Below, piece by piece: positions 2,027 through 23,476 of a stretch of 64,000 nucleotides of DNA. Source of the stretch: a virus. The stretch lies in IMG/VR virus record IMGVR_UViG_3300048905_000128. One strand, written 5' to 3'. The notes beneath the pieces are model-generated. The model did no database searches, had not been told where the DNA came from, and worked only from the letters and a program-made list of their open reading frames with translations. Numbering within the stretch: the stretch's first letter is position 1; each line of letters opens with the position of its first letter. The position numbers were made by a program, and so were the translations under genes.

Positions 2027-2266
2027 CTATGACCCTACACCATCTCCGCCGTTTTTGACCCCAGAATCTTCGGGGTTGTGTTCGGGGTCCTCCACCCCCT
2101 CCAACCATTCGGCCGTCCGCACGAACCCCTCGAACAGATAGCTCAGCATCCGCAGGAACGTCGTACCGGCCAGCAGCAGCGGGAAACCCACCACACCGGC
2201 CCGCACCGTCCCCGGCGCGAGCACCACCTCATCCACCCACCGCCACACCCGCCCGCCCACGCTCAC
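2027..2266 (-). CDS. hypothetical membrane protein (79 aa)
   Basis: Track ORF. GTG 2266 overlaps the upstream stop (GTGA). One hydrophobic helix. The 3' end runs through the promoter repeat. Confidence 0.45.
   Translation of the reverse strand: MSVGGRVWRWVDEVVLAPGTVRAGVVGFPLLLAGTTFLRMLSYLFEGFVRTAEWLEGVEDPEHNPEDSGVKNGGDGVGS
2032..2067 (-). promoter_or_regulatory. repeated promoter/operator cassette, copy 1
   Basis: On the minus strand: ATTCTGGGGTCAAAAA, a 14-nt spacer, then TAGGGT. The architecture is the same as in 7 other copies. Confidence 0.6.
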
Positions 2267-3129
2267 GACAGCGCCTCACGCCGCTCGCCCTCCGGGACGT
2301 CGTCGACGTCGACCACCGACGCCCCGTAGCCGCACGAACTGTTCGATGCCAGCTCGGCGGCCGCGTCGAGCAGCCAGTCGTCCCGCTGCTTCTCGGTCAG
2401 CGCCTCCCACCACGCCCGGGACACGACGAGGTGATCGGTGACGTCACCGCCGGGCCACTCAGCGGTGCAGCGGATCCACACCTGCGCCGCCGGGTCGTCC
2501 CGGTCGAAGTCGCTCATCCCGTCGAACGTGAACGCGGGCGGCTCTGCGGCCTGCGCCCGCAGCCGGTCCAGCTCGCCGAGGACAGCCGACAGCGAGACCG
2601 GGGTGAGCGACATGGCGACGCCCAGCCGGACGCACTCGCGAGCGTCGTCGAGCAGCTCGGCGAGCTGTTCGCGCCCCACCGGGACCGGCAGCTCCGCGTG
2701 GCCGGTGTCGTTCCGGGCGGATCTCAGGATGCGGTCGAGTTGCGCCTTGTGGCGTCCCGAGGGGGAGCGCTCCCCGCCTTCCCAGCCGACGACGGTCCGA
2801 CGGGAGACGCCGAGCGAGTCGGCGAGCTGCTGATGTGTCAGGTTGGCGATCTCGCGGCGCCGCCGTATCTGGACAGGGGTCCAGTCCGCGGTTCGGTCCT
2901 CGCCGTCATGGGGCTGCTCGACGAGCACAACGGGCCCGGCGAGCCTCTGCAGGTGCCCGATGACGCCCTGTAGCACGCGGGCGAGGTCGACCTGTGCACG
3001 CACGATGTCCATGCGGCCGCTGTCGGTTTCTGGGTTCGCCCAGCCGATCGAGTCCTGGGCGACCTTCACCCGGTGAGAGAGATCGCGGAGCCGGTCCAGG
3101 TCGAGCTGGTCGAGGCGCTCGTCGGTCAT
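2263..3129 (-). CDS. XRE-family helix-turn-helix protein (288 aa)
   Basis: Internal ATG 3129 (MTDERLDQLD...). HTH segment IRRRREIANLTHQQLADSLGVSRRTVVGWEGGERSPS. ATGA coupling to the upstream gene. Confidence 0.75.
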   Translation of the reverse strand: MTDERLDQLDLDRLRDLSHRVKVAQDSIGWANPETDSGRMDIVRAQVDLARVLQGVIGHLQRLAGPVVLVEQPHDGEDRTADWTPVQIRRRREIANLTHQQLADSLGVSRRTVVGWEGGERSPSGRHKAQLDRILRSARNDTGHAELPVPVGREQLAELLDDARECVRLGVAMSLTPVSLSAVLGELDRLRAQAAEPPAFTFDGMSDFDRDDPAAQVWIRCTAEWPGGDVTDHLVVSRAWWEALTEKQRDDWLLDAAAELASNSSCGYGASVVDVDDVPEGERREALS

Positions 3130-3500
3130 CGGGGGTCCGCCTCGGCGTAGGCGATGAACGCGTCGAGGGCGGCGCGCACGCGGCGGGCCTGGTCGACGTC
3201 GAGGTGCCCGCGGCGGCCGGGCTCGGCATCCGAGCCGATCCACACGGCATGCTTGTCAGCCAGCGACGACCGCTGCACGGAGAACGAATGGCCGTAGAGG
3301 TCGACGAACTGGGCCCAGACGGCGAACCCGCGCGGGGTGCGAGCGGGCGGCTCGGCGGCGGTCTCGTTCTCGACTTCCTCGGCGCGCAGCAGCAGCCACT
3401 CCGCCACTGCGGCCTGGGTGGTCTCGCCGTAGCGGTTGCAGATGGCGGGCAGGTCGTCGCCGGTGGCCATGGCGCGCAGCTCGTCGGACGTGTCGGTCAT
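3126..3500 (-). CDS. hypothetical protein (124 aa)
   Basis: Internal ATG 3500 (MTDTSDELRAM...), preceded by AGGAGGG and CCCCTACCCC (3520-3529). Confidence 0.65.
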   Translation of the reverse strand: MTDTSDELRAMATGDDLPAICNRYGETTQAAVAEWLLLRAEEVENETAAEPPARTPRGFAVWAQFVDLYGHSFSVQRSSLADKHAVWIGSDAEPGRRGHLDVDQARRVRAALDAFIAYAEADPR

Positions 3501-3553
3501 GGTGCCCTCCTGGGCGGTTGGGGTAGGGGTCCGGCGGCCGGTGGAGCGACCGG

Positions 3554-3955
3554 CTACAGCTCGAGGTCCGGCACGGTGAGGACGTCGGGGGCGGTGGCGT
3601 GGTTGACCAGCTCGTCGACCAGCAGGGGGCGGCCGTCCGGGTCGACGATCACGAGCCGGTCGGCGGTGACGGGAGTGGCCGGGATGGTGAGGCCGGGCCG
3701 GTAGCGGCGCCACGGGGAGACGCGGACGGTGCCGGCGAACAGGGCGACGGCGCGGTACGGGCCGGGGACGGTGGTCTCGGCGCGGGGCGGGCTGATCGGC
3801 GCGAGGGTGTCGGGGTCGATCAGCCCGGATACTCCGAGCTCGAACGCGGTCACGTCGAGGCAGAGCAGGGCGTCGACGAGGGCGGCCATGTCGATGTCGT
3901 CGGGCATGGCGTTGACGAGGAAGTCGACGGCGGCGGCGCGGTCGCGGATGTCCAT
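3554..3955 (-). CDS. hypothetical protein (133 aa)
   Basis: Track ORF with a GGAAGGA SD upstream of ATG 3955; acidic, non-repetitive. Confidence 0.65.
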   Translation of the reverse strand: MDIRDRAAAVDFLVNAMPDDIDMAALVDALLCLDVTAFELGVSGLIDPDTLAPISPPRAETTVPGPYRAVALFAGTVRVSPWRRYRPGLTIPATPVTADRLVIVDPDGRPLLVDELVNHATAPDVLTVPDLEL

Positions 3956-3978
3956 GGCGGGATCCTTCCGGATGGTGT

Positions 3979-4009
3979 GCCGGGCCCGGGGTTGCGCGCC
4001 GGGCCCGGC
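3979..4009 (-). terminator. GC hairpin after gene 4017..4412
   Basis: GCCGGGCCCGG and CCGGGCCCGGC form an 11-bp perfect stem. Confidence 0.55.
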
Positions 4010-4016
4010 TGGGCGG

Positions 4017-4412
4017 TTAGCGGGTGGCGTGGGTGGTGTCGGCGACGAACCGGCCCTGGGCGTCGCGGCCGGTGTGCAGCCCGGTGATCTCGCGGCGGGG
4101 GGCCTGGGCGTTCTTGCCCTCCCGGATGTTCTCGATGGCCCGGATGGCGTCGGCGACGCCGCCGCCGAGGTGGTGGCGGCCGTCGCGGGTGTACCAGCCG
4201 ACCCGGGCGACGTTCAGGAGCTTGACGGTGCGGGTGCGGGCCTCGTCGCAGGCGATGTACCGCTGGGGGACGAGGACGTCGAATGAGGTGGGGCCGTACC
4301 AGCGGAGCTCGGCGCGGACGTCGCCGATGGCGATGGTGGCGATGGCCTCGACGATCATCCGGATGGTGCGGGGGAGGGTGTCGAGGGCGGGCGGTGCGGT
4401 GCGGGTCTTCAT
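4017..4412 (-). CDS. hypothetical protein (131 aa)
   Basis: Track ORF. The leader is GAACCCCTACCCCGGAGGAcacgATG, with the promoter repeat upstream. Confidence 0.7.
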   Translation of the reverse strand: MKTRTAPPALDTLPRTIRMIVEAIATIAIGDVRAELRWYGPTSFDVLVPQRYIACDEARTRTVKLLNVARVGWYTRDGRHHLGGGVADAIRAIENIREGKNAQAPRREITGLHTGRDAQGRFVADTTHATR

Positions 4413-4449
4413 CGTGTCCTCCGGGGTAGGGGTTCCGGCTACAGGTGTA

Positions 4450-4485
4450 ACCCTACACCACCGTTGCCATTTCTGACCCCACTAT
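4450..4485 (-). promoter_or_regulatory. repeated promoter/operator cassette, copy 2
   Basis: On the minus strand: ATAGTGGGGTCAGAAA, a 14-nt spacer, then TAGGGT. Confidence 0.6.
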
Positions 4486-4486
4486 T

Positions 4487-4741
4487 TCAGCCGGTGTGTT
4501 CGGCGTCCTTCGCGACGAGGTGGCGCGGGTTCGGCCGCAGAACCGGCGCCTCCCGGTTAGCCGCCCACGCGTACGTCTCCCGCTCGACCACGCCCCGGCA
4601 GTTCACCACCGTGTAGACGGTGTCCCCGGCCCGGTACACGTCGAGGACGGCCCGCCATCCGGCGACCGGCAGGCGGAGCCAGTCCCCCACGGCGACGTCA
4701 GCGACGGGCAGGGTCAGGGCGAGGCGGGCGGGCGTGTCCAT
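4487..4741 (-). CDS. hypothetical protein (84 aa)
   Basis: Internal ATG 4741 (MDTPARLALTLPV...) with an AGGAGGAACCCC SD. Confidence 0.6.
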   Translation of the reverse strand: MDTPARLALTLPVADVAVGDWLRLPVAGWRAVLDVYRAGDTVYTVVNCRGVVERETYAWAANREAPVLRPNPRHLVAKDAEHTG

Positions 4742-4785
4742 GGGGTTCCTCCTGGGGCTGTACGGGTCGGTGAGGGATGAACGGC

Positions 4786-4809
4786 CCGGCCCCGGGGTTC
4801 CGGGGCCGG
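4786..4809 (-). terminator. GC hairpin after gene 4821..5252
   Basis: CCGGCCCCGG, loop ggtt, CCGGGGCCGG: a 10-bp perfect stem. Confidence 0.55.
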
Positions 4810-4820
4810 ACCAGGGGGAC

Positions 4821-5252
4821 TCAGCGGTGGAACAGCTCGGCGACCTCGTCGGGGCCGACCTCGTCGAAGCGGGAGACGCCCGGGATCTCCTCCATGACGC
4901 CGAGGATGCGGACGTGGAGCTCCTCGACCTTCCCGGCGCTGCCGTGCATCGACTCGATGACGGCGAGGCGACCATCGGTGAGGCGGCACCGGCGGCCGTT
5001 GTCGTCCATGGTCACCGAGGGGCGGACCTGGGCCTCCCAGTACGCGACGTTCAGCTTCCCGGCCGCGAGGCGGCAGGTCGGGCACGACCCGGCGAGGCCG
5101 GTCACGATGCCGTGGTTGGCGAAGCTGCGGCGCTTGGTGGCGCACATGATCGCGGGGGCGGCGTGGCCGTCGAGGTGGGCGAGGTGGCCGACGCCGCCGT
5201 TGTCGACGAGGAGCAGGAACTCGGGGACCGTCGTGGTGGCGGTGGTGTTCAT
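4821..5252 (-). CDS. hypothetical protein (143 aa)
   Basis: Internal ATG 5252 (MNTTATTTVPEF...). The leader is CCCCTACTCCGGAGGtcaccATG. Confidence 0.7.
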   Translation of the reverse strand: MNTTATTTVPEFLLLVDNGGVGHLAHLDGHAAPAIMCATKRRSFANHGIVTGLAGSCPTCRLAAGKLNVAYWEAQVRPSVTMDDNGRRCRLTDGRLAVIESMHGSAGKVEELHVRILGVMEEIPGVSRFDEVGPDEVAELFHR

Positions 5253-5288
5253 GGTGACCTCCGGAGTAGGGGTTCGTGCTGTGGTTTC

Positions 5289-5324
5289 ACCATACACCAT
5301 ATCGCGAGTTTTTGACCCCACTAA
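5289..5324 (-). promoter_or_regulatory. repeated promoter/operator cassette, copy 3
   Basis: On the minus strand: TTAGTGGGGTCAAAAA, a 14-nt spacer, then TATGGT. Confidence 0.6.
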
Positions 5325-5548
5325 TTCGAGGGTTGTGCTCGGGGTCCTTCCAGTTCCGCGAGGGCCAGCTCACGCCCCGCCTCGTAGCCCGCCGAGAACG
5401 CAGACATGATCGCGGCCGCTCCCCCACCGACCGGCATCCCCGCGATGGCCGCCCGCACGTCGACGTCGAGCGCGGGTGCGGCCGGGCGGCCCGCATCCCA
5501 GGCCGCCCGACCCAGGGCCTCGAACCGGGCCCGCTCCTCCCCCGTCAT
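5321..5548 (-). CDS. hypothetical protein (75 aa)
   Basis: Internal ATG 5548 (MTGEERARFEALG...) of ORF 5321..6028. ATGA overlap with the upstream stop. Confidence 0.5.
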   Translation of the reverse strand: MTGEERARFEALGRAAWDAGRPAAPALDVDVRAAIAGMPVGGGAAAIMSAFSAGYEAGRELALAELEGPRAQPSN

Positions 5549-5937
5549 CGGGCCAGCTCCGCGCGCTTCGCCTCCGCGTCGACGTCGGTCGCCAGGCCGT
5601 CCGCGAGGACCTGGCCGTCCGGGGTGACGACCTGCCAGCAGCGCACGTCGCCGGTGACGATGTCGTGGTAGGACCGCACGAACGGCTCGGCGAGCACGAA
5701 CGAGGAGCGGCGGACGTGCTCGAGGGTGCGCTCGCGCTGTGCGCCCGGCTCGCCTTCCAGCCGCACGAGCTCGTACCGGTCGCTGCCGTGCCGCTGCTGG
5801 TCGGCGCATGCCTGGCGGTCGCAGTCGCACCAGCCGAGGACGCGGTACCGGCCGCGGTGCTCGGTGAGGGAGCCCCGGTAGTCGACCAGCGCGCCGGGGC
5901 GGGGCGGGGCGGTCTCGGCGGTCAGGTCGGCGGTCAT
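5545..5937 (-). CDS. hypothetical protein (130 aa)
   Basis: Track ORF. The leader is CGACTACCCCCGAGGAGcgaccATG. Confidence 0.65.
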   Translation of the reverse strand: MTADLTAETAPPRPGALVDYRGSLTEHRGRYRVLGWCDCDRQACADQQRHGSDRYELVRLEGEPGAQRERTLEHVRRSSFVLAEPFVRSYHDIVTGDVRCWQVVTPDGQVLADGLATDVDAEAKRAELAR

Positions 5938-5972
5938 GGTCGCTCCTCGGGGGTAGTCGAGCGGGGACGTGA

Positions 5973-5997
5973 GCCCGGCCCCATGTCGGGGCCGGGC
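5973..5997 (-). terminator. GC hairpin after gene 6004..6255
   Basis: GCCCGGCCCC and GGGGCCGGGC form a 10-bp stem. Confidence 0.5.
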
Positions 5998-6003
5998 GGG
6001 CGG

Positions 6004-6255
6004 CTATACCGCCGCGGCGGCCCGCCACTGGTCGGCGGCGAGGTGGGCGCGCTCGGCGCGGGTGATGGCGGTCTCGGCGACCTGGCGCCCGATCTCGAGC
6101 GCGCGGTCGCGGGTGATGTCGCCCTCAAGGCGGGTGAAGCCGACGAGGCGAGGGTCGACCATGCGGAACCCCCAGGCGGAGCCGGCGAGGTTGAGCTGCC
6201 GGACCTCGACCTCGACGCCGTTGGTGCCGGTGATGGTGGTGGTGGTGACGGCCAT
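6004..6255 (-). CDS. hypothetical protein (83 aa)
   Basis: Internal ATG 6255 (MAVTTTTITGTNG...) of the 448-aa track ORF. The leader is GAACCCCTACCCCAGGAGcaccccATG. Confidence 0.6.
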   Translation of the reverse strand: MAVTTTTITGTNGVEVEVRQLNLAGSAWGFRMVDPRLVGFTRLEGDITRDRALEIGRQVAETAITRAERAHLAADQWRAAAAV

Positions 6256-6293
6256 GGGGTGCTCCTGGGGTAGGGGTTCCGTTCGGTGTGGTT

Positions 6294-6614
6294 TCACCCT
6301 ACACCCTGGCCGTCGTTTCTGACCCCAGTAATTTGGAGGACGTGGGACACATCGGCCGCCGGGTCGCCCTCGGCGACCGGACTGGGCAGCACACGCGTCG
6401 GCGCCGACACCGCAGCCGGGGCCGCCGGACCCACCCCAGGGATCGACGGCAACGCCAGCCCGACCAGCCCGAAAGCGACCAGCAAGCCGACGAGCACGCC
6501 GCCGATCCACACGCGGATGTCGGGGTCGATGTCGGACCAGCGGCGGCGCCGCGGCCGCTCGACGGCCGGGGCGGGCGGCTCGATGCGAAGGAAGCGGGTG
6601 GTGGGCGTGTCCAT
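6294..6614 (-). CDS. membrane protein (106 aa)
   Basis: Track ORF with a transmembrane helix (VWIGGVLVGLLVAFGLVGLAL). CCCCTACCCC lies at 6635-6644 plus a GCAGGAG SD. Confidence 0.6.
   Translation of the reverse strand: MDTPTTRFLRIEPPAPAVERPRRRRWSDIDPDIRVWIGGVLVGLLVAFGLVGLALPSIPGVGPAAPAAVSAPTRVLPSPVAEGDPAADVSHVLQITGVRNDGQGVG
6296..6331 (-). promoter_or_regulatory. repeated promoter/operator cassette, copy 4
   Basis: On the minus strand: TTACTGGGGTCAGAAA, a 14-nt spacer, then TAGGGT. Confidence 0.6.
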
Positions 6615-6651
6615 CGTGGGCTCCTGCGGGGTGTGGGGTAGGGGTCGGGGC

Positions 6652-6682
6652 GGCCCGGCCGTCAGGGGTGGACGGCCGGGCC
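6652..6682 (-). terminator. GC hairpin after gene 6690..7454
   Basis: GGCCCGGCCGTC and GACGGCCGGGCC form a 12-bp perfect stem. Confidence 0.55.
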
Positions 6683-6689
6683 CGGGGAG

Positions 6690-7454
6690 TCAGCCCTGCA
6701 GCTCGGCGAGGTACTCGGTGACCGCCGCCTCGACGTCGGCGGCGAGCAGGCACCGCTGCAGCCGCACCATGACCTCGCCGCGCTGGACCGTCTTGCGGGC
6801 CGGGCGGGTGCGACCCTGGCCGCGCTGGGCGAGCCGCTCGACGCGGGCCGTCCACCACTGCACCCCGGCCTCGACGTCGACCAGGTGGCGCTGCCCGTCG
6901 ACCTCCCGGCCCGGGTAAGCCTTGTCGGACAGGACGGCCCCATACATGCGCTGCGGGGTGAAGTCCTCGGCGACCAGGCCGCGCTCCCGCAGGATCGCCA
7001 CCAGCCGGTACGGGGTGACCAGCCCGTCCGGACGCTCGACGACCCGACGGGCCCGCTTCGACTCCGGGTGCTCGTCGGTGCAGGCGTCGAGGTCCTCGCA
7101 CTCGTCGCGGGTGTGGTCGGCGACGACCACTGCGTCGACCGGCTCGCTGTAGGTCTCGGCGATGCCGTCGAGCGCGGCCTCGACGCCCTTGTCCTCGACC
7201 GGGGCCGGGGCGTCGCAGGCCTCGTCGACCTCGGGGGCCTCGGCGATCTCCTCGGCGGTCGGGGTGTCGACCAGCTCGATGCGGTCGATGCGGACCCGCT
7301 TCGTCAGGGTGGCCGCCTTGCCCTTCACCTCGACCTCGACGACAACCCAACCGGCGTCGAGGTCGACGGACTGGACGATGCCGGGGCGGGCGGCCCGACG
7401 GGGGTCGAGCGTGACGTCGACGGTCTGGCCGACCTGGGGGGCGGTGGTGTTCAT
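6690..7454 (-). CDS. hypothetical acidic protein (254 aa)
   Basis: Track ORF 6690..7460. The second ATG (7454) is preferred because the GGAG abuts the first ATG. The leader is GAACCCCTACCCCACGGAG. Confidence 0.7.
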   Translation of the reverse strand: MNTTAPQVGQTVDVTLDPRRAARPGIVQSVDLDAGWVVVEVEVKGKAATLTKRVRIDRIELVDTPTAEEIAEAPEVDEACDAPAPVEDKGVEAALDGIAETYSEPVDAVVVADHTRDECEDLDACTDEHPESKRARRVVERPDGLVTPYRLVAILRERGLVAEDFTPQRMYGAVLSDKAYPGREVDGQRHLVDVEAGVQWWTARVERLAQRGQGRTRPARKTVQRGEVMVRLQRCLLAADVEAAVTEYLAELQG

Positions 7455-7494
7455 CGTCATCTCCGTGGGGTAGGGGTTCCTGCTGACATGGATA

Positions 7495-7530
7495 ACCCTA
7501 CACGCCTTCCACCGTTTTTGACCCCAGAAA
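7495..7530 (-). promoter_or_regulatory. repeated promoter/operator cassette, copy 5
   Basis: On the minus strand: TTTCTGGGGTCAAAAA, a 14-nt spacer, then TAGGGT. Confidence 0.6.
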
Positions 7531-7701
7531 CTAGCATCGAGTTGTGTGCTCTACGTCCTCCACGTCCGACCGCCATATGTACGACAGCCCCCACACGCGC
7601 GAGACGACGCAGGCGCGGGCGACCGACCTGGGGGTTTGTGGTGTGGGTGGTGTGGGGGTGCTGGTCGGGCGGTCTGTCCTGTGTGGTCTACGTCCTCCAC
7701 A

Positions 7702-7737
7702 TTTCTGGGGCCAGATATTCGGTTTTTGGTGTAGGGT
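7702..7737 (+). promoter_or_regulatory. repeated promoter/operator cassette, copy 6 (divergent from copy 5)
   Basis: TTTCTGGGGCCAGATA, a 14-nt spacer, then TAGGGT, upstream of gene 7776. Confidence 0.55.
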
Positions 7738-7775
7738 TAACCCGTCGGATCGAGCAGGGGAGGGAGGTGAACGGT

Positions 7776-8042
7776 ATGGCAGACAAGCTGGGCGACAAGA
7801 TCATGTTGGCGGCGGCCGACCAGGGATGGACGGTCGTCGACCACGGGACCATGGTCCGGTTCGTCAGCAGCCAGGTGGCGGCGTCTTTCGACGTCCCCCA
7901 TGAGCTGCTGGACGACCCGGCGATGGAGCCGACCCTTCGGGGCACGGTGCTCCTGGACATGATCGTCGCGGGACACCTGCAGTGGCCTTGGCCGCCGGAC
8001 CACGTCGAGTGGATCCACGGTGAGACGCCGCTGATGGAGTGA
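7776..8042 (+). CDS. hypothetical protein (88 aa)
   Basis: Internal ATG 7776 (MADKLGDKIML...) of ORF 6885..8042 with a GGGAGGGAGG SD. Confidence 0.65.
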   Translation: MADKLGDKIMLAAADQGWTVVDHGTMVRFVSSQVAASFDVPHELLDDPAMEPTLRGTVLLDMIVAGHLQWPWPPDHVEWIHGETPLME

Positions 8043-8047
8043 TCCCG

Positions 8048-8090
8048 GGGCGGGGGTCCTGCCGGGGTATGACCGGCAGGGCCCCCGCCC
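8048..8090 (+). terminator. long GC hairpin
   Basis: GGGCGGGGGTCCTGCCGG pairs with CCGGCAGGGCCCCCGCCC, an 18-bp stem with one mismatch. Confidence 0.6.
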
Positions 8091-8125
8091 GCCCAGCATC
8101 GCAGGACACGCCACTCAACCCGAAG

Positions 8126-8148
8126 GCCCTAGACAAACAGTCTAGGGC
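8126..8148. promoter_or_regulatory. perfect palindrome GCCCTAGAC-N5-GTCTAGGGC (operator-like)
   Basis: 9-bp arms, 19 nt upstream of ATG 8167. The core TAGAC-N5-GTCTA is the same as at 22899-22913. Confidence 0.5.
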
Positions 8149-8166
8149 TGGGCACCATACCGACCC

Positions 8167-8685
8167 ATGACTCCTACCCCCACCGAACCCCTCAGCCTCC
8201 GCATCGTCCTCGAAGTCGACGGCCACCCCATCGCAACCAGCATGGCGAACGTCCTCGGCCGCGAAACCGCGAAGCGCCTCGGCGGCACCCTCGCCGGCGT
8301 CGGCCACCTCGGCGACAACCGGCTGTCACTCACCATCGGAACAACCCCACCCGAGAACGGCAGCCTCGCCACCCAGCTCACCAACCTCGATGTCGCCGTG
8401 CACACCGTCCTCGCCGAGACCGGGCTCCGCGACCCCGACAGCATCCGCACCGCCGACCTGCAAGGCATGACCTACCGCGAGGTCACCCGCAGAATCGCCG
8501 AACACACCACACCCGACGTCGTGGGCGTCGAAGAAGCCTGCGAGATCCTCGACGTCAACCGGGCCCGCCTCTACGAGCTCCGCGCCAACGACAAGCGGTT
8601 CCCCGCCGCCTTCCGCCGCGGAGTGTGGATGCGCGCCAGCATGGAGCGCTACGCATCCATCCGCCACCAGCGCGAAGCAGGCTGA
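8167..8685 (+). CDS. DNA-binding protein with C-terminal excisionase/MerR-type HTH (172 aa)
   Basis: Track ORF. The C-terminal segment VVGVEEACEILDVNRARLYELRANDKRFPAAF resembles Xis/AlpA-type HTH. Confidence 0.6.
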   Translation: MTPTPTEPLSLRIVLEVDGHPIATSMANVLGRETAKRLGGTLAGVGHLGDNRLSLTIGTTPPENGSLATQLTNLDVAVHTVLAETGLRDPDSIRTADLQGMTYREVTRRIAEHTTPDVVGVEEACEILDVNRARLYELRANDKRFPAAFRRGVWMRASMERYASIRHQREAG

Positions 8686-8715
8686 CCCCGTATACGTCGA
8701 CCCCTGCCCCGACGC

Positions 8716-8757
8716 GACGGAGCCCCGCCGACCCGAGAGAGTCGACGGGGCTCCGTC
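8716..8757. terminator. hairpin between convergent genes
   Basis: GACGGAGCCCCG (8716-8727) pairs with CGGGGCTCCGTC (8746-8757). Confidence 0.5.
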
Positions 8758-8842
8758 AGCACCTACCCGCCCAGCCCCCTGGACGTGCACCAACGACGCT
8801 ACACGGGCACACCGACAATCCCCGGCCGACAACCCGGACCGA

Positions 8843-9175
8843 TCACAGCACGTCGCCCGGGCCGTGCCAGCGCAACCGGGCCGTCCTGCGCAGGTGGACC
8901 TCGACACCCGACGGGAGCCGCAGCCACGAGCCGCCGCCCGTCGCCAGCGCCGCCCACCGGCCGGCGATCGCCTCAGCATCCGCCCTCGACCAGCCCGGCG
9001 TGCCGATCTCCACCTGGCCGCCCGGGACCTCGACCAGGTACCGGCCCGCCTCGGCGGCGAAGTCCACGGAGGCGAACCCGGCCGTCATCGCCAGCGAGGG
9101 CGAGTAGCCCAGCCCGGACCGGTGCAGCCACCACCGCCACCGGCCGACGCGTGCCGGGCGACGTATACGGCTCAC
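8843..9175 (-). CDS. hypothetical protein (110 aa)
   Basis: GTG 9175 inside ORF 8843..9259, in GTGA overlap with the upstream stop. Last gene of the coupled operon. Confidence 0.5.
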   Translation of the reverse strand: MSRIRRPARVGRWRWWLHRSGLGYSPSLAMTAGFASVDFAAEAGRYLVEVPGGQVEIGTPGWSRADAEAIAGRWAALATGGGSWLRLPSGVEVHLRRTARLRWHGPGDVL

Positions 9176-13701: not shown

Positions 13702-14886
13702 TTACACCACCAACGCCGCATCAGTTTCCGGGGTCGATAAACCCGGCTGCCCGTCCGGGATGAACTCCCGTGTCCGCCCCAGCCCCCGCCGCCTCGGCGC
13801 AGGCTTCGGCGCCGACTTGCGCGGCTGGTAGATCCGCCGCGCAGCCGCACGACCGGCCTCCGCGATCGGGGCGGGCTCCGTCTCGGCAGCGCGCCGGGCC
13901 TCCTCGGCCGCCTCCTCGGCGGCCGCCAGCTCAGCCACGACGACCCGATGCGGAGTCGTGTGGTCGCACGGCGTCCGCGGCGACAACAGGACCCCGGGAT
14001 GCCCAGGCTGGCACCGGTCGCCCACCGGGTTGCACATCTCGCACGCCGCCAGGACGGCCGCCGTTTCGCGGGTCTCAACGGCGACCGGGTCCGGGGCCGC
14101 CTCGTGGCGGACCCGCTGCTGCCGGTTGTGGTTCTTGACCCGCTGGCACTTCCAGCAGCCCGGCACGTCGAACTCGGGATCGGCCCGGATCGCCGCGAGG
14201 TGCTCGGCGCACGCCCACTCCGACTCGGGGTCCGTCCACTTCGACTTCGGCAGGGGTGGGGGGGCGTCCGGGACCGGCCCCGTCTCGGGCTGGCCGTCGA
14301 CGGTCTCAGCTGCCCCCCCGGTCCCCCTGATGGTTCCTAAATGGTTCAAGGGGTCCCGCTCCGGGACCCCTGCTACGTCCCGCTCCGGGACGGGGGTAGT
14401 CCCGGAGCGGGACCTTGCCGACACATGGTCCCGCTCCGGGACTATGTCGTCGACCTGGGGATCATCGTCGCATGGTCCCGCTGCGGGACTATGTTCGCCA
14501 CCTGGGGTTTCTTCGGCGTCTAGGGCGTCGTCGGTCGGGGTCGGGTCGTCCTCGAACAGGGCTTCGAGCTCGTCCATCTCCTCCTTCGAGACGACTCGCT
14601 TCCGCGCCTTGAGGGCCTCGATGTTGAGTCGGTAGGCGTTCGAGCGCCGCGACCCGTTCCGGCGACGGCGGGCCCGACGCTCGATCAGGCCGTCCTCGTT
14701 CTCCAGCTCCTTGAGGAGCCGGAACACAGTCGATCGCGGGATGCCCGACGACCCCATCAGGTGCTCAATGCCGGGCTTGCACAGCCCGACGACGTTCGCG
14801 TTGTTGGCGATGGCGATCAGCAGCATCCGCTTGTTGACCGGGCCGACGTCGGACTCGAGGACAGCGTTCAGGGCCGGGATGCTCAC
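13702..14886 (-). CDS. winged-helix DNA-binding protein, candidate replication initiator (394 aa)
   Basis: GTG 14886 (VSIPALNAVLESDVGPVNKRMLLIAIANNANVVGLCKPGIEHLMGSSGIPRSTVFRLLKELENEDGLIERR) is a wHTH. Five palindromic iterons lie inside the gene. It is coupled to a 22-codon uORF. Confidence 0.7.
   Translation of the reverse strand: MSIPALNAVLESDVGPVNKRMLLIAIANNANVVGLCKPGIEHLMGSSGIPRSTVFRLLKELENEDGLIERRARRRRNGSRRSNAYRLNIEALKARKRVVSKEEMDELEALFEDDPTPTDDALDAEETPGGEHSPAAGPCDDDPQVDDIVPERDHVSARSRSGTTPVPERDVAGVPERDPLNHLGTIRGTGGAAETVDGQPETGPVPDAPPPLPKSKWTDPESEWACAEHLAAIRADPEFDVPGCWKCQRVKNHNRQQRVRHEAAPDPVAVETRETAAVLAACEMCNPVGDRCQPGHPGVLLSPRTPCDHTTPHRVVVAELAAAEEAAEEARRAAETEPAPIAEAGRAAARRIYQPRKSAPKPAPRRRGLGRTREFIPDGQPGLSTPETDAALVV
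14353..14489. repeat. five copies of the 15-bp palindrome GTCCCG-N3-CGGGAC (iteron-like)
   Basis: Copies at 14353-14367, 14377-14391, 14399-14413, 14428-14442 and 14475-14489. Confidence 0.8.
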
Positions 14887-14951
14887 CAGACGACCCCCGC
14901 CCTCTTGAGCGCGGCCATCGAGCCGGGCGGTGGTTCGTGGGCAGGCGTCAT
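14883..14951 (-). other. 22-codon upstream ORF (MTPAHEPPPGSMAALKRAGVVW)
   Basis: CCCCTACCCCAGGGAGG plus 9 nt precede ATG 14951. The stop TGA overlaps GTG 14886 of the rep-like gene. Confidence 0.35.
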
Positions 14952-15027
14952 CGCGACGCACCTCCCTGGGGTAGGGGTCGATCGAGCGCGGTGGGGTTGA
15001 CCGGCTCGGGGGTAGGTGGGGTGAACA

Positions 15028-16342: not shown

Positions 16343-16561
16343 TCAGCTCGTCAGCTGATATCCGCTCGCCACTCCCCCGCCGTTCGGGCCGACAGCCCGC
16401 AACACGCGGATCAGCCCCGCCCGTTCCAGCTCGCGCGTCGCACGCTGTGCAGTGCGGGACGACGTCCCGATCACCCGCGCCAGCTCGGCCACCGTCAGCG
16501 ACCGAGCCCCCTGCGCGCACACGACCCGCAGATGCGACAGCAGACGATCCCTCGCGGACAT
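16343..16561 (-). CDS. small winged-HTH regulator (72 aa; possible extension to 16666)
   Basis: ATG 16561 (MSARDRLLSHLRVVCAQGARSLTVAELARVIGTSSRTAQRATRELERAGLIRVL). Confidence 0.55.
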   Translation of the reverse strand: MSARDRLLSHLRVVCAQGARSLTVAELARVIGTSSRTAQRATRELERAGLIRVLRAVGPNGGGVASGYQLTS

Positions 16562-16822
16562 GCTCGACGATTCCGGCGCGCCTGCTTGAGGACGCGCATC
16601 ACCCACAGCTAGGGTCATCCCTAGACCAACTCTCTCGGTCACCTCTTCCCCTCGGGCGCCAACCATCGGGGTAGAGGTCTGCCCGCTCGTCGGGCATGGG
16701 CGAACCGTATCCCCGATTACATCCACAGCCGGGCAGGCTCGGTCAGCCCGGCGTGTCACCCCCCGACGGTCGGAACAATCGGGGACACCACTCGGCGCGG
16801 CGGCCCTCGACAGCCGCCCCAG

Positions 16823-17230
16823 ATGACCTACGCTCGCGGTGTGGCAGGACAAGAGCAGCGCACCACGACGCTCCCCCGCGGGCTGAACCGCCGATTCGGC
16901 GACCTCGTGAAGGCCCGCGGCGTCACCCGCGCATCCGTCCTGTACGCGCTGCTCCGCGAGGCCGCCGCCGCCGTCGTCGCAGGCCAGGGTGACCTGCTCC
17001 CCAAGGCCCCGCCGTCGGGGCGCCTCGAACGTGGCAGCGTCGGACCCGTCGACGAGGTCCGGTGGACCCAAGGTCTCGCCGAATACACCGACTGGTGCCA
17101 ACTCTACGAGTCCGTGGGTTCGTCTCTGGTCGTCGTGGCACGCGCCCGCGTGGCCGCCTACGTCGAGGCCGGTGGAGACTCGGTCCGGATGTCGTGGGCC
17201 GTCAAAAGGACCCTGAGCACAGCGGCCTAA
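16823..17230 (+). CDS. hypothetical protein with RHH-like N-terminus (135 aa)
   Basis: Track ORF. The segment TTTLPRGLNRRFGDLVKARGVTRASVLYALLREAA fits a strand-helix-helix pattern. Confidence 0.55.
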   Translation: MTYARGVAGQEQRTTTLPRGLNRRFGDLVKARGVTRASVLYALLREAAAAVVAGQGDLLPKAPPSGRLERGSVGPVDEVRWTQGLAEYTDWCQLYESVGSSLVVVARARVAAYVEAGGDSVRMSWAVKRTLSTAA

Positions 17231-17268: not shown

Positions 17269-18000
17269 GTGGGCGTGAACACCCCTACCCCAGGTGTTCA
17301 GCAGGTCACCCCGCCTGCTGACGCCGCGCCGTTCGTCGGCGCCCTCGTTCCCGTCCCGACCGCTGGCGCGCTGCCCGGTCTCCCCTCCCCCGCCGAGACC
17401 CGGCGCCTGCTCAAGGAGGGTGTGAACGCGGCCGTCGGCCGTGTCCGCGCCCAGCGGGTCGCCCAGAAGCCCGGCGACTACTTCCCGCTGATCCTCGACC
17501 TCACCGCGCTGCGGGAGCTGCTCGGCGAGTACGTCGACGCATTCAAGGCGATCATGGCGATCCTGCTGCAGGTGATCGAGGAGGAGCACCTCGAGGCCGC
17601 GGGCGAGCAAGACGGCATTCCGAACACCGGTCTCGACGTCCCCGACAGCGACGGAACCGTCGTGAAGGTCCGCGCCAAGACGTCGAACAAGCACGTCATC
17701 GACCCCGATCAGGTCCTCGGGCCCATCGCCGCACTCGTCATGGAGCGGTGGGTGATGCGCACCGTCCGCGAACCCGACACGGCCCTGATCGCCGCCGAGG
17801 CCCCCGAGGAGTACGCGATCGAGGTCGCCCGCGAGGCCCTCGCGATGATGGGCTCCGCGAAGATGCAGACGTCGCGGCTCAAGGAGCTGCGGCTCACCCT
17901 CGGCCAGATGGGACTGCACCAGCTCGCCGACGTGGTCAAGGACGCCGAGACCACCACCCGCAAGTTCGAGGGCACCACCGTGGAGCGCAAGACCGCCTGA
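17269..18000 (+). CDS. hypothetical protein (243 aa)
   Basis: Track ORF directly upstream of recT. The start may be GTG 17275. Confidence 0.65.
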   Translation: MGVNTPTPGVQQVTPPADAAPFVGALVPVPTAGALPGLPSPAETRRLLKEGVNAAVGRVRAQRVAQKPGDYFPLILDLTALRELLGEYVDAFKAIMAILLQVIEEEHLEAAGEQDGIPNTGLDVPDSDGTVVKVRAKTSNKHVIDPDQVLGPIAALVMERWVMRTVREPDTALIAAEAPEEYAIEVAREALAMMGSAKMQTSRLKELRLTLGQMGLHQLADVVKDAETTTRKFEGTTVERKTA

Positions 18001-19974: not shown

Positions 19975-19980
19975 CCCCAC

Positions 19981-20016
19981 GGCCCGGCCGCCGACCTACC
20001 CCTCGGCGGCCGGGCC
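19981..20016 (+). terminator. 14-bp-stem hairpin with CCTACCCC in the loop
   Basis: GGCCCGGCCGCCGA, loop cctacccc, TCGGCGGCCGGGCC. Confidence 0.55.
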
Positions 20017-20046
20017 CGACCCCTACCCCACAACCGGAGCCCAGCC

Positions 20047-20430
20047 ATGTATGTGAGACCCGACTTCGACCTGGTCGGCTACCTGCTGACCCTCCCCGAC
20101 GACCTGAGCCCCGTCGCATGGGAGCTGCACGAGCTGAGATGGATGCTGTCCGCGCTGTGCGCCGAGATCGGCACGCAGGCGTGGTTCTCCGAGCAGGGCG
20201 AGAACACCCACCCCGCCCGGCGCATCTGCGCCGCCTGCCCCGTCCGGTACGACTGCCTCGTCTACGGGCTGCGCAACCGCGAGGAGTACGGGGTGTTCGG
20301 CGGGCTCACCGCCAACGAACGCGACATCGTCCTCGCCCGGCACAAGCAGATGCGCCGCGGCACCCTGCCCCAGCCGGTCGCCGCCGCCCTGGCCGCCGCC
20401 CTCGACGACGACCAGGCGGTCGCCGCGTGA
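20047..20430 (+). CDS. WhiB-like transcription factor
   Basis: C-X24-C-X2-C-X5-C pattern (LCAEIG...RRICAACPVRYDCLVYGL) plus a GVFGGLTANER turn. CCCCTACCCC lies at 20020. Confidence 0.85.
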   Translation: MYVRPDFDLVGYLLTLPDDLSPVAWELHELRWMLSALCAEIGTQAWFSEQGENTHPARRICAACPVRYDCLVYGLRNREEYGVFGGLTANERDIVLARHKQMRRGTLPQPVAAALAAALDDDQAVAA

Positions 20431-20789
20431 GCACGATCGCCACCATCGGACAGGTCGTCACCGGCCACACCTGGCGCGCCAACAGCGAGGACGAGCTACA
20501 GGCCGGGCTCGCCGCGGCGCTCACCGCGGCCGGGGTCGACGTCGAACGGGAGCACCGGCTCGACGCCCGCAACCGGCTCGACCTGTGGACCGTCGACGGC
20601 ATCGCCATCGAGGTGAAGACGTCACGCCGCACCACCACCGCGGACGTGCTCCGTCAGGTTCGCCGCTACGCCGAACACGACGAGGTTTCGGCGGTCGTGG
20701 TGCTGTCGACGGTCCCCTCCCACACCCTGCTACCGGCGATGATCGGCGGGAAGCCGTGCCATGCCTACCACCTGCGGGGCGCTCTGTGA
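20427..20789 (+). CDS. PD-(D/E)xK (VRR-NUC-like) nuclease (120 aa)
   Basis: GTG 20427 in GTGA overlap. The motif DLWTVDGIAIEVKTS fits D...ExK. It is paired with the SNF2 helicase. Confidence 0.7.
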   Translation: MSTIATIGQVVTGHTWRANSEDELQAGLAAALTAAGVDVEREHRLDARNRLDLWTVDGIAIEVKTSRRTTTADVLRQVRRYAEHDEVSAVVVLSTVPSHTLLPAMIGGKPCHAYHLRGAL

Positions 20790-22510
20790 CCGCCACGTAC
20801 GGCACGCTGCGGCACTCCGTACCGGAGGGGAAGGGCCGCCCGGTGTGGGCGGTCAAGGCCGAGCCGCACGTGATGATCCGGCTCAAGCGCACCCTGCCCC
20901 GCATCCAGGCGTCACGGACCGGGGAGATCACGGTGGTCGATACCCCGGAGATGGCGCGCGAGCTCGCGTGGTTCATGGACCGGTTCCCGCTCACCGTCGA
21001 CCCGATCGCCCGGGCTCGCCTCGACAAGCGGCTGGGCGAGCACCGGGCACGTGAGGAGGACGTCGCCGCTGTGCTGCAGGGCAACGGCGGGTTACCCGGC
21101 CTCGTCGAACCGGCACGGACGCCGCGGGACTATCAGCAGGTCGCGGCGGCGATGATGCGCGCCTCCCGGCGCATGATCCTCGGCGACGACCTCGGGCTGG
21201 GGAAGACGTTCGAGAGCCTGCTGCTGCTCGCCCAGGAGGACGCGCTCCCCGCGCTCGTCGTGACCCAGACGCACCTGCCGTGGCAGTGGATCGGGGAGCT
21301 GGGGCAGACGTGGCCGCTGCTGCTCGGTCACATCCTGCGGGGCACGAAGCCGTACGACCTGGCGAACATCCGCGCGCACCGCGGCTATGTGCCCGACGTG
21401 CTCGTGTCCGGGTACTCGCGGGTCGCGGGCTGGGCCGACACGCTGGCCGGGAAGATCAAAACGGTGATCTTGGACGAGTGCCAGGAGCTGCGTAACGGGG
21501 TGGAGACGGCGAAGGGCACGGCGATCGCGCAGATCGCCGACCAGGCGAACTACGTGGTGGGGCTGTCCGCGACGCCGATCTACAACTACGGCGAGGAGAT
21601 GTGGAGCATCCTGTCGATCATCGCGCCCGACGCGTTGGGTGACAGACAGGAGTTTCGGCGCGAGTGGTGCAAGAACGTCACCCAGAACGGGCACGCGATC
21701 GTCGAGAACCCGGCCGCGCTCGGCGGCTACCTGCGCGACCAAGGGCTGTTCCTTCGCAGGACGCGCGCCGAGGTGGGCCGCGAGCTGGGCAGCGAACCGC
21801 AGCGGATCCGCGTCGACGTCGAGTCCGACCCGAAGGCCCTCGAAGCGCTCAAGGCCGACACCCTCGCGCTCGCCCGGCTGATCCTCGACCAGTCCACCGA
21901 GCACACCCGCCGCTTCGTCGCCATGGGCAGCCTCGACGCCCAGATTCGGCAGGCCACCGGCATAGCGAAGGCCCCGTACGTGGCCGCGTTCGTGCGGCTG
22001 CTCCTCGAGTCCACGCCGAAGCTCGTCCTGTTCGGCTGGCACCACAGCGTGTACGACATCTGGCGGGAGGAGCTGGCCGACGCCAACCCGGTGTTCTACA
22101 CCGGCGACGAGACCGCGGCGCAGAAGCGCAAGGCGGTGGAGGCGTTCATCGACGGTGACGCCCGCGTGCTCGTCATGTCGCTGCGGTCCGGGGCCGGTCT
22201 CGACGGACTGCAGAAGGCGACGTCGGTGTGCGTGTTCGGCGAGCTGGGCTGGTCGCCCGGCGTGCACGCGCAGGCGATTGGCAGGCTGCAGCGCGATGGG
22301 CAGGCCGCCCCGGTGCTCGCCTACTTCCCCGTGTCCGATGGCGGATCCGATCCGGTGATGGACTCGGTGCTGCAGCTCAAGTCCGCGCAGGCCGAGCCGA
22401 TGCTTGACCCCGACGCGCCTGTGTTCGTCCCGACCGCCGAGGACGCCGCCGACCACGTCCGGCTCCTCGCCGAGCAGCTCGTCGCGCGCGCCGCCACCGA
22501 CGCCGCCTGA
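20786..22510 (+). CDS. SNF2/DEAD-like helicase (574 aa)
   Basis: GTG 20786 in GTGA overlap. Motifs DDLGLGKT (I), VILDECQ (II), LSATPIYN (III) and QAIGRLQRDGQ (VI). Confidence 0.85.
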   Translation: MTATYGTLRHSVPEGKGRPVWAVKAEPHVMIRLKRTLPRIQASRTGEITVVDTPEMARELAWFMDRFPLTVDPIARARLDKRLGEHRAREEDVAAVLQGNGGLPGLVEPARTPRDYQQVAAAMMRASRRMILGDDLGLGKTFESLLLLAQEDALPALVVTQTHLPWQWIGELGQTWPLLLGHILRGTKPYDLANIRAHRGYVPDVLVSGYSRVAGWADTLAGKIKTVILDECQELRNGVETAKGTAIAQIADQANYVVGLSATPIYNYGEEMWSILSIIAPDALGDRQEFRREWCKNVTQNGHAIVENPAALGGYLRDQGLFLRRTRAEVGRELGSEPQRIRVDVESDPKALEALKADTLALARLILDQSTEHTRRFVAMGSLDAQIRQATGIAKAPYVAAFVRLLLESTPKLVLFGWHHSVYDIWREELADANPVFYTGDETAAQKRKAVEAFIDGDARVLVMSLRSGAGLDGLQKATSVCVFGELGWSPGVHAQAIGRLQRDGQAAPVLAYFPVSDGGSDPVMDSVLQLKSAQAEPMLDPDAPVFVPTAEDAADHVRLLAEQLVARAATDAA

Positions 22511-22521
22511 ACTCCGAGAGC

Positions 22522-22890
22522 GTGGCCCGCCGGATCGTCCGCGAACGATCCGGCGGGGTGTGCGAGGGCTGCGGTGCGGCCAGGGCGACGAGCTGGTCGC
22601 ACCGGATCGGCCGCGGCGTGGGCGGGTGGTGGTCGCCCGAGAACGGCCTCGACCTATGCGGGGACGGCGTCACCGGATGCCATGGGTGGGCGACCAGGGA
22701 ACGGCACGCGACCAGGCCGGACGCTGCGCGGGCGAAGGGGTGGGTGATCCGATCGACGGACGACCCGGCGACGTTCCCGGCGCTGACCGCGATGTGGGGA
22801 TGGGTGCAGCTCACCGAGGACGGGCTCTATATCCCATCCGACCCACCCGAAATTAGTGGGGTCAGAAACGTGAGACTTGGTGTATGGTGA
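22522..22890 (+). CDS. HNH endonuclease
   Basis: CEGCG...SHRIGRGVGGWWSPENGLDLCGDGVTGCH. The 3' end overlaps promoter repeat copy 7. Confidence 0.8.
   Translation: MARRIVRERSGGVCEGCGAARATSWSHRIGRGVGGWWSPENGLDLCGDGVTGCHGWATRERHATRPDAARAKGWVIRSTDDPATFPALTAMWGWVQLTEDGLYIPSDPPEISGVRNVRLGVW
22853..22888 (+). promoter_or_regulatory. repeated promoter/operator cassette, copy 7
   Basis: TTAGTGGGGTCAGAAA, a 14-nt spacer, then TATGGT. It is followed by the CCCTAGAC-N5-GTCTA palindrome (22896-22913) and CCCCTACCCC (22914). Confidence 0.6.
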
Positions 22891-22938
22891 AAGCACCCTA
22901 GACGGGTTGTCTACCCCTACCCCGACCGGAGCGCCGCC

Positions 22939-23436
22939 ATGACGAAGCCCCGCACGACCTGCCCGAGCTGCAACCGCAACGTCGCGATCGTGTCCAAATC
23001 CGGCGGGCTCGCCTACCACCGCTGCGAGCCCGTAGACCTCACCGAGGCCCGCGCCAACGTCATCCGCCACCGGGGCGCACGGGAGCGCGCCGTCCAGCTG
23101 CGCCGCGAGGTCCCCGCCGTGCTCCGCCGCGCCCTGGTCCGCGGCACCACCACCACCGTCGTCCTCGGCGCTCTCGGCGGGGTCGGTGTCGCCACCAGCT
23201 CTGTCGTGTGGCTCGCCTGGATCGCCGTGGTCGCCGCCGGGCTGGTCGCTCTGGTCACCGGGTGGTTCATCGAGACCACCGCCCGTGCTGTCCCCCGGCT
23301 CGACGCCGCGATCGTCGCGGCAACCGAGAAGTGCGGCCGGGCTGTGGACGAGCTGCGGGCGGTCGAGGCGTCCCTCCCGCTGCACGTCGTGTTCCCCGAG
23401 GTTTACCCGGCCCCGGAGGACCCCCACCACATCTAG
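22939..23436 (+). CDS. membrane protein with N-terminal CxxC...HxC zinc-ribbon-like motif (165 aa)
   Basis: Track ORF with two adjacent transmembrane helices (VVLGALGGVGVATSSVVWLAWIAVVAAGLVALVTGWF). Confidence 0.65.
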   Translation: MTKPRTTCPSCNRNVAIVSKSGGLAYHRCEPVDLTEARANVIRHRGARERAVQLRREVPAVLRRALVRGTTTTVVLGALGGVGVATSSVVWLAWIAVVAAGLVALVTGWFIETTARAVPRLDAAIVAATEKCGRAVDELRAVEASLPLHVVFPEVYPAPEDPHHI

Positions 23437-23440
23437 CAAG

Positions 23441-23476
23441 TTTCTGGGGTCAAAAACGGTCGGTGTGGTGTATGGT
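23441..23476 (+). promoter_or_regulatory. repeated promoter/operator cassette, copy 8
   Basis: TTTCTGGGGTCAAAAA, a 14-nt spacer, then TATGGT, followed by GACCCCTACCCCAGGAGatcgacATG. Confidence 0.6.

Follow-up and report, generated by a model that had tools for sequence, protein, structure and literature searches.

We analyzed a 64,000-nt stretch of viral DNA (IMG/VR record IMGVR_UViG_3300048905_000128; hereafter, the window) in which a 36-bp promoter-like cassette, composed of a conserved box, a 14-nt spacer, and a TAGGGT or TATGGT hexamer, recurs in front of nonstructural genes. The window has a GC content of 72% and encodes the structural and lysis proteins of a phage (i.e., tape-measure, major capsid, and tail tube proteins, an amidase, and a holin), with the portal and terminase genes lying immediately to its right. 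Other genes in the window specify a RecT-like annealase, an SNF2 helicase, a WhiB-like (Wbl) protein, an HNH endonuclease, and a lambda-O-like replication initiator, and a ParA protein and an FtsK-like ATPase are also encoded. The source is an uncultured, 72%-GC actinobacterial phage of the siphovirus type, and because no integrase was seen in it, this phage is possibly a plasmid-prophage.

The same DNA was recovered in soil-type metagenome assemblies (3300048920, 3300048906, and others of the Joint Genome Institute [JGI], and Logan SRR359254xx-359257xx) on contigs of 87-132 kb, and these metagenomic variants are 99.97-100% identical across the array of cassettes. A megablast search of the window against phage and plasmid collections returned zero matches. 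The helicase shares at most 49% identity with Arthrobacter phage helicases, the capsid protein is essentially an orphan, and the phage has no close cultured relative.

Occurrence and conservation of the cassette

The original prediction, made by a model from the sequence alone, had listed eight copies of the cassette, and our analysis recovered all of them. Copies 1 to 5 are on the minus strand (2032-2067, 4450-4485, 5289-5324, 6296-6331, and 7495-7530), and copies 6 to 8 are on the plus strand (7702-7737, 22853-22888, and 23441-23476). A search with TGGGGYCARAWA-N11-GTGTAKGGT returned 8 matches in the window, and the same 8 when three mismatches were allowed, compared with 0.00 expected from 100 dinucleotide shuffles. 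In addition, a position weight matrix scan of the window gave 48-58 bits for the true copies and at most 12 bits for everything else. Copy 1 reads ATTCTGGGGTCAAAAA-N14-TAGGGT, and the most divergent box, GGGGCCAGATA, is that of copy 6.

The 14-nt spacing is indeed constant in all eight copies, as had been claimed, and a ninth, more divergent copy, which the same contig carries ~6 kb beyond the left end of the window (L007:17610-17645), keeps the same distance between box and hexamer (9/9). The hexamer is TAGGGT in five copies and TATGGT in three, with an invariant A at position 2 and an invariant T at position 6, and it is always preceded by GTG. The exact extended -10 sequence, GTGTAKGGT, was found in the window only together with the box. 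When the 12-nt box was sought without a -10, three matches with two mismatches were obtained against 2.3 expected by chance, i.e., there are zero orphan boxes.

Compared pairwise, the copies share an identity of 0.91 over the box and 0.94 over the extended -10, whereas the central spacer reaches 0.29, with 0.30 expected at random from composition. Conserved blocks on either side of a randomized spacer argue for selection on two elements held at a fixed distance and against recent duplication, and the copies would accordingly be old.

The box itself is an asymmetric 12-nt sequence, TGGGGTCARAAA, with an invariant core, TGGGGTCA, and, counted from the inferred transcription start site (TSS), it spans about -38 to -27. 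It had been described as a 16-bp pseudo-palindrome and, on that basis, as the site of a dimeric regulator. The palindrome proved weak, since the sequence is self-complementary at 2-6 of 8 positions, the core is asymmetric, and the arm positions show no covariation. For these reasons, a symmetric dimer site is disfavored, and the dimeric interpretation is left without support.

All copies are in the nonstructural arms, and the structural and packaging region has zero box promoters. Motif scans gave 0 matches in the viral contig collection and 0 in the genome contig collection, and the 3 matches in metagenome contigs were all attributable to chance, being located in contigs of 41-51% GC. Among the collections searched, the motif thus appears to be confined to this lineage.

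Genes and accessory elements around the cassette

All nine copies are oriented toward the adjacent gene, and in seven of them the start codon lies 36-50 nt past the hexamer. Copy 1 is arranged differently: the ATG of g006 (1839-2024; GC content at third codon positions, or GC3, 0.97) follows after 7 nt, at the eighth nucleotide past the hexamer, too close for a Shine-Dalgarno sequence to fit in between. The start chosen in the JGI gene call is identical, and the geometry appears to be that of an actinobacterial leaderless mRNA. Copy 2 would drive g010 (4017-4412) and then g009, g008, g007 (which encodes a helix-turn-helix [HTH] protein), and the open reading frame (ORF) 2027-2266. Copy 3 precedes g012 (4821-5252), a hairpin at 4786-4809, and g011, and copy 4 precedes g014 (6004-6255), a hairpin at 5973-5997, g013, and ORF 5321-5548. 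Copies 5 and 6 are 171 bp apart and point away from each other, in agreement with the original prediction; the leftward one would drive g016 (6690-7454), which is followed by a hairpin (6652-6682) and g015, and the rightward one would drive g017 (7776-8042), which is followed by a hairpin (8048-8090) and g018 (HTH_17). Copy 7 sits inside the 3' end of the HNH gene and precedes g038 (22939-23436), and copy 8 precedes g039 (23516-24202) and a hairpin at 24207-24240. The units therefore hold one to five genes, and not the one or two that had been proposed.

Upstream ORFs had also been said to run into the repeat, and this was borne out for the HNH gene, g015, ORF 2027-2266, and ORF 5321-5548. The HNH endonuclease gene (22522-22890) is real (PHROG 740, E=7e-24) and ends inside the -10 of copy 7, in TATGGTGA. 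Both g015 and ORF 2027-2266 cross a whole cassette, that of copy 4 with a stop 1 nt past the hexamer and that of copy 1 with a stop 2 nt past it, respectively, and ORF 5321-5548 terminates within the 5' arm of copy 3, at a TAG.

The statement that each cassette ends in a GC hairpin holds only in part. Strong hairpins do follow the first gene of five promoters (g016, g014, g012, g017, and g039), but more genes come after them; these genes carry their own copy of a second repeated sequence, ACCCCTACCCC, which is described below, and reach up to or into the next promoter. The hairpin directly after g016 (6652-6682, minus strand) has a 12-bp stem and no U tract, and further GC hairpins, besides those already mentioned at 5973-5997, 4786-4809, 8048-8090, and 24207-24240, are located at 19981-20016 and 22526-22557. 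Scans of the window found no canonical T-tailed terminators. Because the hairpins lack a U tract, their function as terminators is uncertain.

The eight driven genes are unrelated ORFans that belong to no Pfam or PHROG family. Since the proteins that they encode are mutually unrelated, gene duplication could be ruled out as the source of the repeat. As a separate observation, g012, g014, g016, and g039 share near-identical first codons despite being unrelated (ATGAACACCACCGCC or, more broadly, M-(N/T/A)-T-T-(A/T)-rich starts), and the same pattern is present at starts in relatives (L011:2440, L011:3526, and L016:5702), with conservation that reaches approximately the first five codons. These shared codons may represent a G-poor, unstructured translation-initiation region.

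The conserved unit is longer than originally described and is modular, comprising an upstream element, the box, the GTG plus hexamer, and a leader element. The upstream element has the consensus GRAGGAC-N3-SR-N-CACA and is positioned at about -68 to -52 or, when inverted, at -62 to -46. It accompanies eight of the nine copies: five, the ninth among them, have it forward at a distance of 8-9 nt, another has it forward at 14 nt, and the remaining two have it inverted at 3 nt. More specifically, forward elements lie on the minus strand at 2077-2093 (GGAGGACCCCGAACACA, 9 nt from copy 1), 4495-4511, 5334-5350, and 7545-7561 (the one with the 14-nt gap) and on the plus strand at 23415-23431. Reversed ones lie at 6335-6351 (plus strand, 3 nt from copy 4) and 7682-7698 (minus strand, 3 nt from copy 6). 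Given that the element is either intergenic or read in differing frames by the upstream ORFs, it is conserved as DNA and not as peptide.

The leader element, ACCCCTACCCC, is associated with gene starts and yielded 25 matches in the window versus 1.57 expected. It is nearly always in gene orientation, 10-30 nt before the start and just ahead of the Shine-Dalgarno sequence, whether a box promoter is present or not; it often comes directly after a GC hairpin, is once found inside a leaderless ORF, and in the structural arm is present only at g073. Leaders downstream of the cassette are 30-40 nt long and carry the element at about +8 to +18, followed by the Shine-Dalgarno sequence and the start codon. 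These promoter-associated elements are at 4423-4433 (the leader of copy 2), 5263-5273, 6267-6277, and 7467-7477 on the minus strand and at 22913-22923 and 23494-23504 on the plus strand. Elements with no box promoter are at 1744-1754, 3520-3530, 6635-6645, 50251-50261, and 50267-50277 on the minus strand and at 17281-17291, 20019-20029, 24246-24256, and 34484-34494 on the plus strand, and others are on the minus strand at 14968, 15856, and 29914.

When reverse-complemented, the leader element nearly matches the -10 region, GGTGTAGGGT. We considered both a structured leader RNA and a hairpin formed between the -10 region and the leader in read-through transcripts, and both were rejected: RNAalifold predicted 0 consensus pairs in the leaders, folding z-scores were unremarkable (-0.45 to +1.6), and Rfam gave 0 matches. 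The leader of the ninth copy (L007:17646-17717) is a case of its own: it is 72 nt long, contains a strong hairpin (GTTGGTCGGGCCC...GGGCCCGACCAAC), and has a leader element of variant sequence, CCCTTACCCCAGGAG, whereas the leaders in the window are unstructured.

A scan with the canonical promoter consensus found 0 sites in 1-9000, and a relaxed scan of the window found a single canonical intergenic promoter, P17238 (17238-17267, plus strand; TTGACC-18-TATCGT). It probably starts a leaderless GTG at 17275 and precedes an operon of g032, the RecT-like gene, g034, the WhiB-like g035, g036, and the SNF2 gene. An upstream-element-like sequence, AAAGGACCCTGAGCACA, is located at 17205-17221 (plus strand), i.e., at the same distance (about -70 to -54), and ACCCCTACCCC is found downstream. 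Because the same upstream and leader modules flank this canonical promoter, the box would seem to occupy the -35 slot of a shared architecture and to be one interchangeable module within it.

A putative promoter class and its alternatives

We consider it likely, with a probability of roughly 0.75, that the eight copies and the ninth constitute a lineage-specific class of promoters for early or nonstructural ORFan genes, in which an asymmetric box, probably read by a phage factor, takes the place of the -35. The hexamer conforms to the TANNNT of primary-sigma promoters, and TAGGGT/TATGGT fits the Streptomyces consensus TAG(A/G)(A/G)T. These features, together with the gene orientation of the copies, uphold the description of the repeats as promoter-like cassettes with a good actinobacterial -10. 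It is also correct that no TTGACA-like hexamer is present, the best candidate being GGGTCA at 18 nt, with 3 of 6 matches. On the reverse strand, TTTTTGACCCCA contains TTGACC, but no TANNNT follows 16-19 nt downstream in that orientation, and a reverse-strand reading was discarded.

The array has a single distant relative, L011. This relative has a homologue of g016 at 36% identity and a g017-like gene in the same divergent layout, and at equivalent positions it carries five copies of a different cassette, TGTGTTGACATGG-N14-TACCTTAGGTGTGTAAG, which is a canonical TTGACA-17-TACCTT promoter. The relatives anchored on the helicase are all without the box; they comprise an IMG/VR contig (L012, 47% identity), five metagenome contigs (L013-L017, 58-61%), and a metagenome-assembled genome of Bacilli (L025, 36%). 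Within this set, the leader element is common to L016/L017 only, a box-less relative with 61% helicase identity in which ACCCCTACCCC occurs at homologous positions (L016:278, L016:5673, and L017:2601).

Several points weigh against the promoter assignment. A canonical -35 and a TGn in the usual extended -10 register are both absent at the copies, and sigma factor, RNA polymerase, MotA, and AsiA families were not found among the annotated genes, which span approximately -9 to +73 kb. The TSSs and the promoter activity are read from the sequence, and the ~100% identity of the variants, together with the confinement of the motif to this element among the collections searched, leaves no variation by which its individual positions could be compared. 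Moreover, a -10 is often enough for an actinobacterial promoter to function, and the box could be a purely regulatory operator.

In one form of this last objection, the -10 and the GTG make up a self-sufficient host promoter, and the box is an immunity-repressor operator placed over the -35 region, silencing the array in the prophage; the boxes would then be akin to the repressor sites of Cluster A phage L5. Such an operator would be in keeping with an asymmetric box of ~12 nt that overlaps the -35 region in every copy, with the established ability of many actinobacterial promoters to manage without a -35, and with plasmid-prophage-like features of the phage, such as ParA, an O-like initiator with iterons, and several HTH proteins. 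Nevertheless, a repressor operator needs no exactly invariant 14-nt spacing, which is seen in 9/9 copies; every box is paired with a -10, unlike stoperators, and no box is found near the own promoter of any candidate repressor gene. We therefore regard the operator as unlikely, and strict spacing combined with asymmetry would fit a role in recognition or activation better. A constant distance between two blocks, combined with a spacer of fully variable sequence, is also the signature of sigma-dependent promoters, and the box might be an unusual -35 read by a non-housekeeping sigma, either phage encoded or an alternative sigma of the host. The 101-132-kb contig does extend about 24 kb or more past the annotated span, where such a gene might lie. 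However, the -10 is a textbook primary-sigma TANNNT, unlike those of extracytoplasmic function (ECF) or SigF/SigB-type sigmas, and no Sigma70_r2/r4 domain was seen in the annotated genes save for one sub-threshold HTH cross-match in g007 (E=0.009), so that we judge a dedicated sigma to be rather improbable.

We find it hard to believe that the repeats are not promoters at all and mark recombination, packaging, or mobile-element boundaries at exchangeable gene cassettes. The copies do sit at the edges of small ORFan cassettes, and the metagenomic variants differ in gene content further to the left. Those same variants are nonetheless identical across the array, and in L011 canonical promoters take the corresponding places. 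Boundaries would likewise not account for an orientation that always follows the downstream gene, a tightly constrained distance to the start codon, a perfect -10, the leaderless geometry of one copy, or a spacer that is randomized while its length is fixed.

If the copies are promoters of the proposed class, melting of the -10 would fall to the host RNA polymerase holoenzyme and its housekeeping sigma, and the box would be read stereospecifically at the -35 position, as its strictly fixed spacing to the -10 and its asymmetry suggest. The reader would most likely be a phage-encoded monomeric DNA-binding factor or a remodeled sigma region 4. Box promoters would then form a delayed-early (middle) class, switched on after P17238 as the sole canonical promoter, and read-through would probably be attenuated by the hairpins that follow each unit's first gene. 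Candidate readers are g007 (HTH_3 plus DUF7167), g018 (HTH_17), g031 (HTH_23), g034, and the 72-aa winged-helix protein encoded at 16343-16561.

An indirect candidate is g035 (20047-20430, plus strand), a possible partner of sigma region 4. It is a bona fide Wbl protein (PF02467, 1.2e-18; 8dy7_H, 4.6e-16), and its closest match is the developmental WhiB of Streptomyces, solved in RNA polymerase complexes. Phage homologues related to it interfere with host cell division. Phage Wbl proteins have been reported to bind region 4 of sigmaA in an AsiA-like manner (PMC13013590). The identity of g035 and this report motivate, and do not demonstrate, a speculative model akin to sigma appropriation, in which P17238 produces g035, g035 clamps region 4 of the housekeeping sigma and thereby blocks recognition of the -35, a phage factor or the remodeled complex reads TGGGGTCARAAA, and GRAGGAC..CACA serves as the site of a tethered HTH protein. 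We hold this particular scenario to be a long shot; if true, it would amount to a temporal switch from -35-dependent to box-dependent transcription and would be of high interest.

The closest known analogues are the repeats of Cluster K mycobacteriophages and the early promoters of phiC31. In Cluster K, the extended start-associated sequence (ESAS) is a repeated intergenic motif of ~46 bp with a putative promoter before some nonstructural genes, and it combines SigA-like -35 and -10 hexamers 17-18 bp apart with an imperfect 15-17-bp inverted repeat, while the start-associated sequence (SAS) is a 13-bp GGGATAGGAGCCC that contains the AGGAG Shine-Dalgarno core and lies 3-9 bp before start codons (Pope et al., 2011, PMC3203893; Adephagia, 2024, PMC11373665). 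Like the ESAS, the window cassette is a repeated, promoter-bearing motif placed before a subset of nonstructural genes and largely absent from structural ones. Similarly, ACCCCTACCCC resembles the SAS in being short, asymmetric, in one orientation, far more numerous than the promoters, and mostly linked to nonstructural genes, and the consensus differs between subclusters there as it does between the window and L011 here. There is, however, no sequence similarity, and the host clade and phage lineage are different. In the window, an asymmetric box stands in for the -35 and a convincing inverted repeat is lacking, and ACCCCTACCCC lies 5' of the Shine-Dalgarno sequence instead of containing it and occurs once inside a leaderless ORF. 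Indeed, GGGATAGGAGCCC gave only three 2-mismatch matches in the window, none of them associated with a start.

Our analysis of the phiC31 sequence identified a 19-nt noncanonical, non-sigma70-like motif, GGGTTGCCGACTCCCTTAC, 45-68 nt before at least eight early genes, and a separate palindrome, CCTACTCACGTGAGTAGG, in 15 copies. Ingham et al. are said to have mapped the former as early promoters and the latter as repressor operators in 1993/1994. Both phages are high-GC actinophages with a repeated motif before early genes and a second, separate repeated element. They differ in that the phiC31 motif is one contiguous block without TANNNT, whereas the window motif is bipartite with a canonical -10, and in that the window has no abundant palindromic operator, holding only two TAGAC-N5-GTCTA palindromes and one CTAGGG-N4-CCCTAG. 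Neither GGGTTGCCGACTCCCTTAC nor CCTACTCACGTGAGTAGG was found in the window within 4 mismatches.

Other systems share single aspects of the architecture. T4 middle promoters, functionally the nearest analogy, also combine a host-type -10 with a box near -30 that replaces the -35, which in T4 is the MotA box used with sigma appropriation by AsiA. They are switched on after canonical early promoters, once an early phage protein has bound sigma region 4, and the counterpart here would, speculatively, be g035; unlike in T4, no MotA or AsiA homologues were found in the annotated span. The stoperators of Cluster A phage L5 are likewise short asymmetric sites, oriented with transcription and present in many copies in the nonstructural region. 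The L5 repressor sites are asymmetric and 13 bp long, and one overlaps the -35 of the early lytic promoter, but stoperators occur independently of promoters, whereas the window box is always tied to a -10 at a fixed spacing. Finally, WhiA/WhiB promoters of Streptomyces have an asymmetric motif on either strand and at a variable distance, bound by an HTH that is tethered via WhiB to sigma region 4 (PMC10243135). The upstream element of the window is comparable in that it occurs on either strand at a variable distance and ends in GA-N-CACA. It was rejected as a WhiA motif, given that a single copy out of 9 contains GACAC; in addition, GRAGGAC, its best-conserved part, has no counterpart, and no WhiA is encoded in the window.

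Phage-specific repeated promoters with accessory elements are a well-known phenomenon, and it is this motif that is new to the collections searched. Such cassettes are entry points to temporal gene control, about which almost nothing is known for uncultured high-GC actinophages. The present one fits into 36 bp, its geometry is invariant, and its -10 is canonical whereas its -35 is replaced; the sister lineage with a canonical version at the same positions offers a natural pair for testing -35 substitutes in Actinobacteria. The combination of a promoter motif with a start-associated sequence recurs here outside Cluster K with unrelated sequences, and because it does so in a very different phage lineage, we argue that this architecture is functional and not an oddity of a single cluster. 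Should the factor that acts on it be identified, the cassette could become an orthogonal promoter part for Streptomyces-type hosts.

Other features of the phage genome

Three palindromes in the window are candidate operators. Two of the form TAGAC-N5-GTCTA are located between g017 and g018 (8130-8144), the latter being an HTH gene, and in the leader of copy 7 (22899-22913). A perfect CTAGGG-N4-CCCTAG lies at 16609-16624, in the 16.6-kb regulatory region beside the gene for the 72-aa winged-helix protein. CTAG-containing hexamers are strongly avoided in the window, with 7 occurrences of CCCTAG/CTAGGG versus about 41 expected, 6 of the 7 being intergenic.

Inside g030 (13702-14961, minus strand), the stretch 14349-14494 holds four repeats, either GC hairpins or iteron-like, of the sequence GGTCCCGCTCCGGGAC or variants of it. 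This gene encodes the lambda-O-like replication initiator (PHROG 391, E=4e-13), and the repeats are probably a replication origin within the initiator gene.

About 7-9.5 kb to the right of the window end (L021:538-2940), a cluster of QueC, QueD (PTPS), QueE (radical SAM), and GTP cyclohydrolase I genes adjoins the terminase and portal genes. This 7-deazaguanine (preQ0-type) pathway suggests that the phage DNA carries modified guanines, which, if present, could matter for the G-rich promoter box.

To the left of the window, variants that are otherwise ~100% identical differ in gene content (L007:11272-12672 versus L009:11272-15135). One of them has a 466-aa PF04447 dATP/dGTP pyrophosphohydrolase, and the other has different genes, including one for a DUF1643 protein; this locus is a cassette-replacement hotspot.

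Between the lysin and tail genes, the JGI annotation has an ORF of 1,141 aa (36139-39564, minus strand) with no Pfam family. The GC3-based gene caller missed this ORF and called small, spurious plus-strand ORFs (g057-g060) in its place. Lastly, at 30564-31987 (plus strand), the gene for a DUF6879 protein, g050, adjoins that for an XRE-family regulator with HTH_31 and DUF5753, g051, and the phage thus carries a gene pair typical of Streptomyces-type toxin-antitoxin or defense modules.

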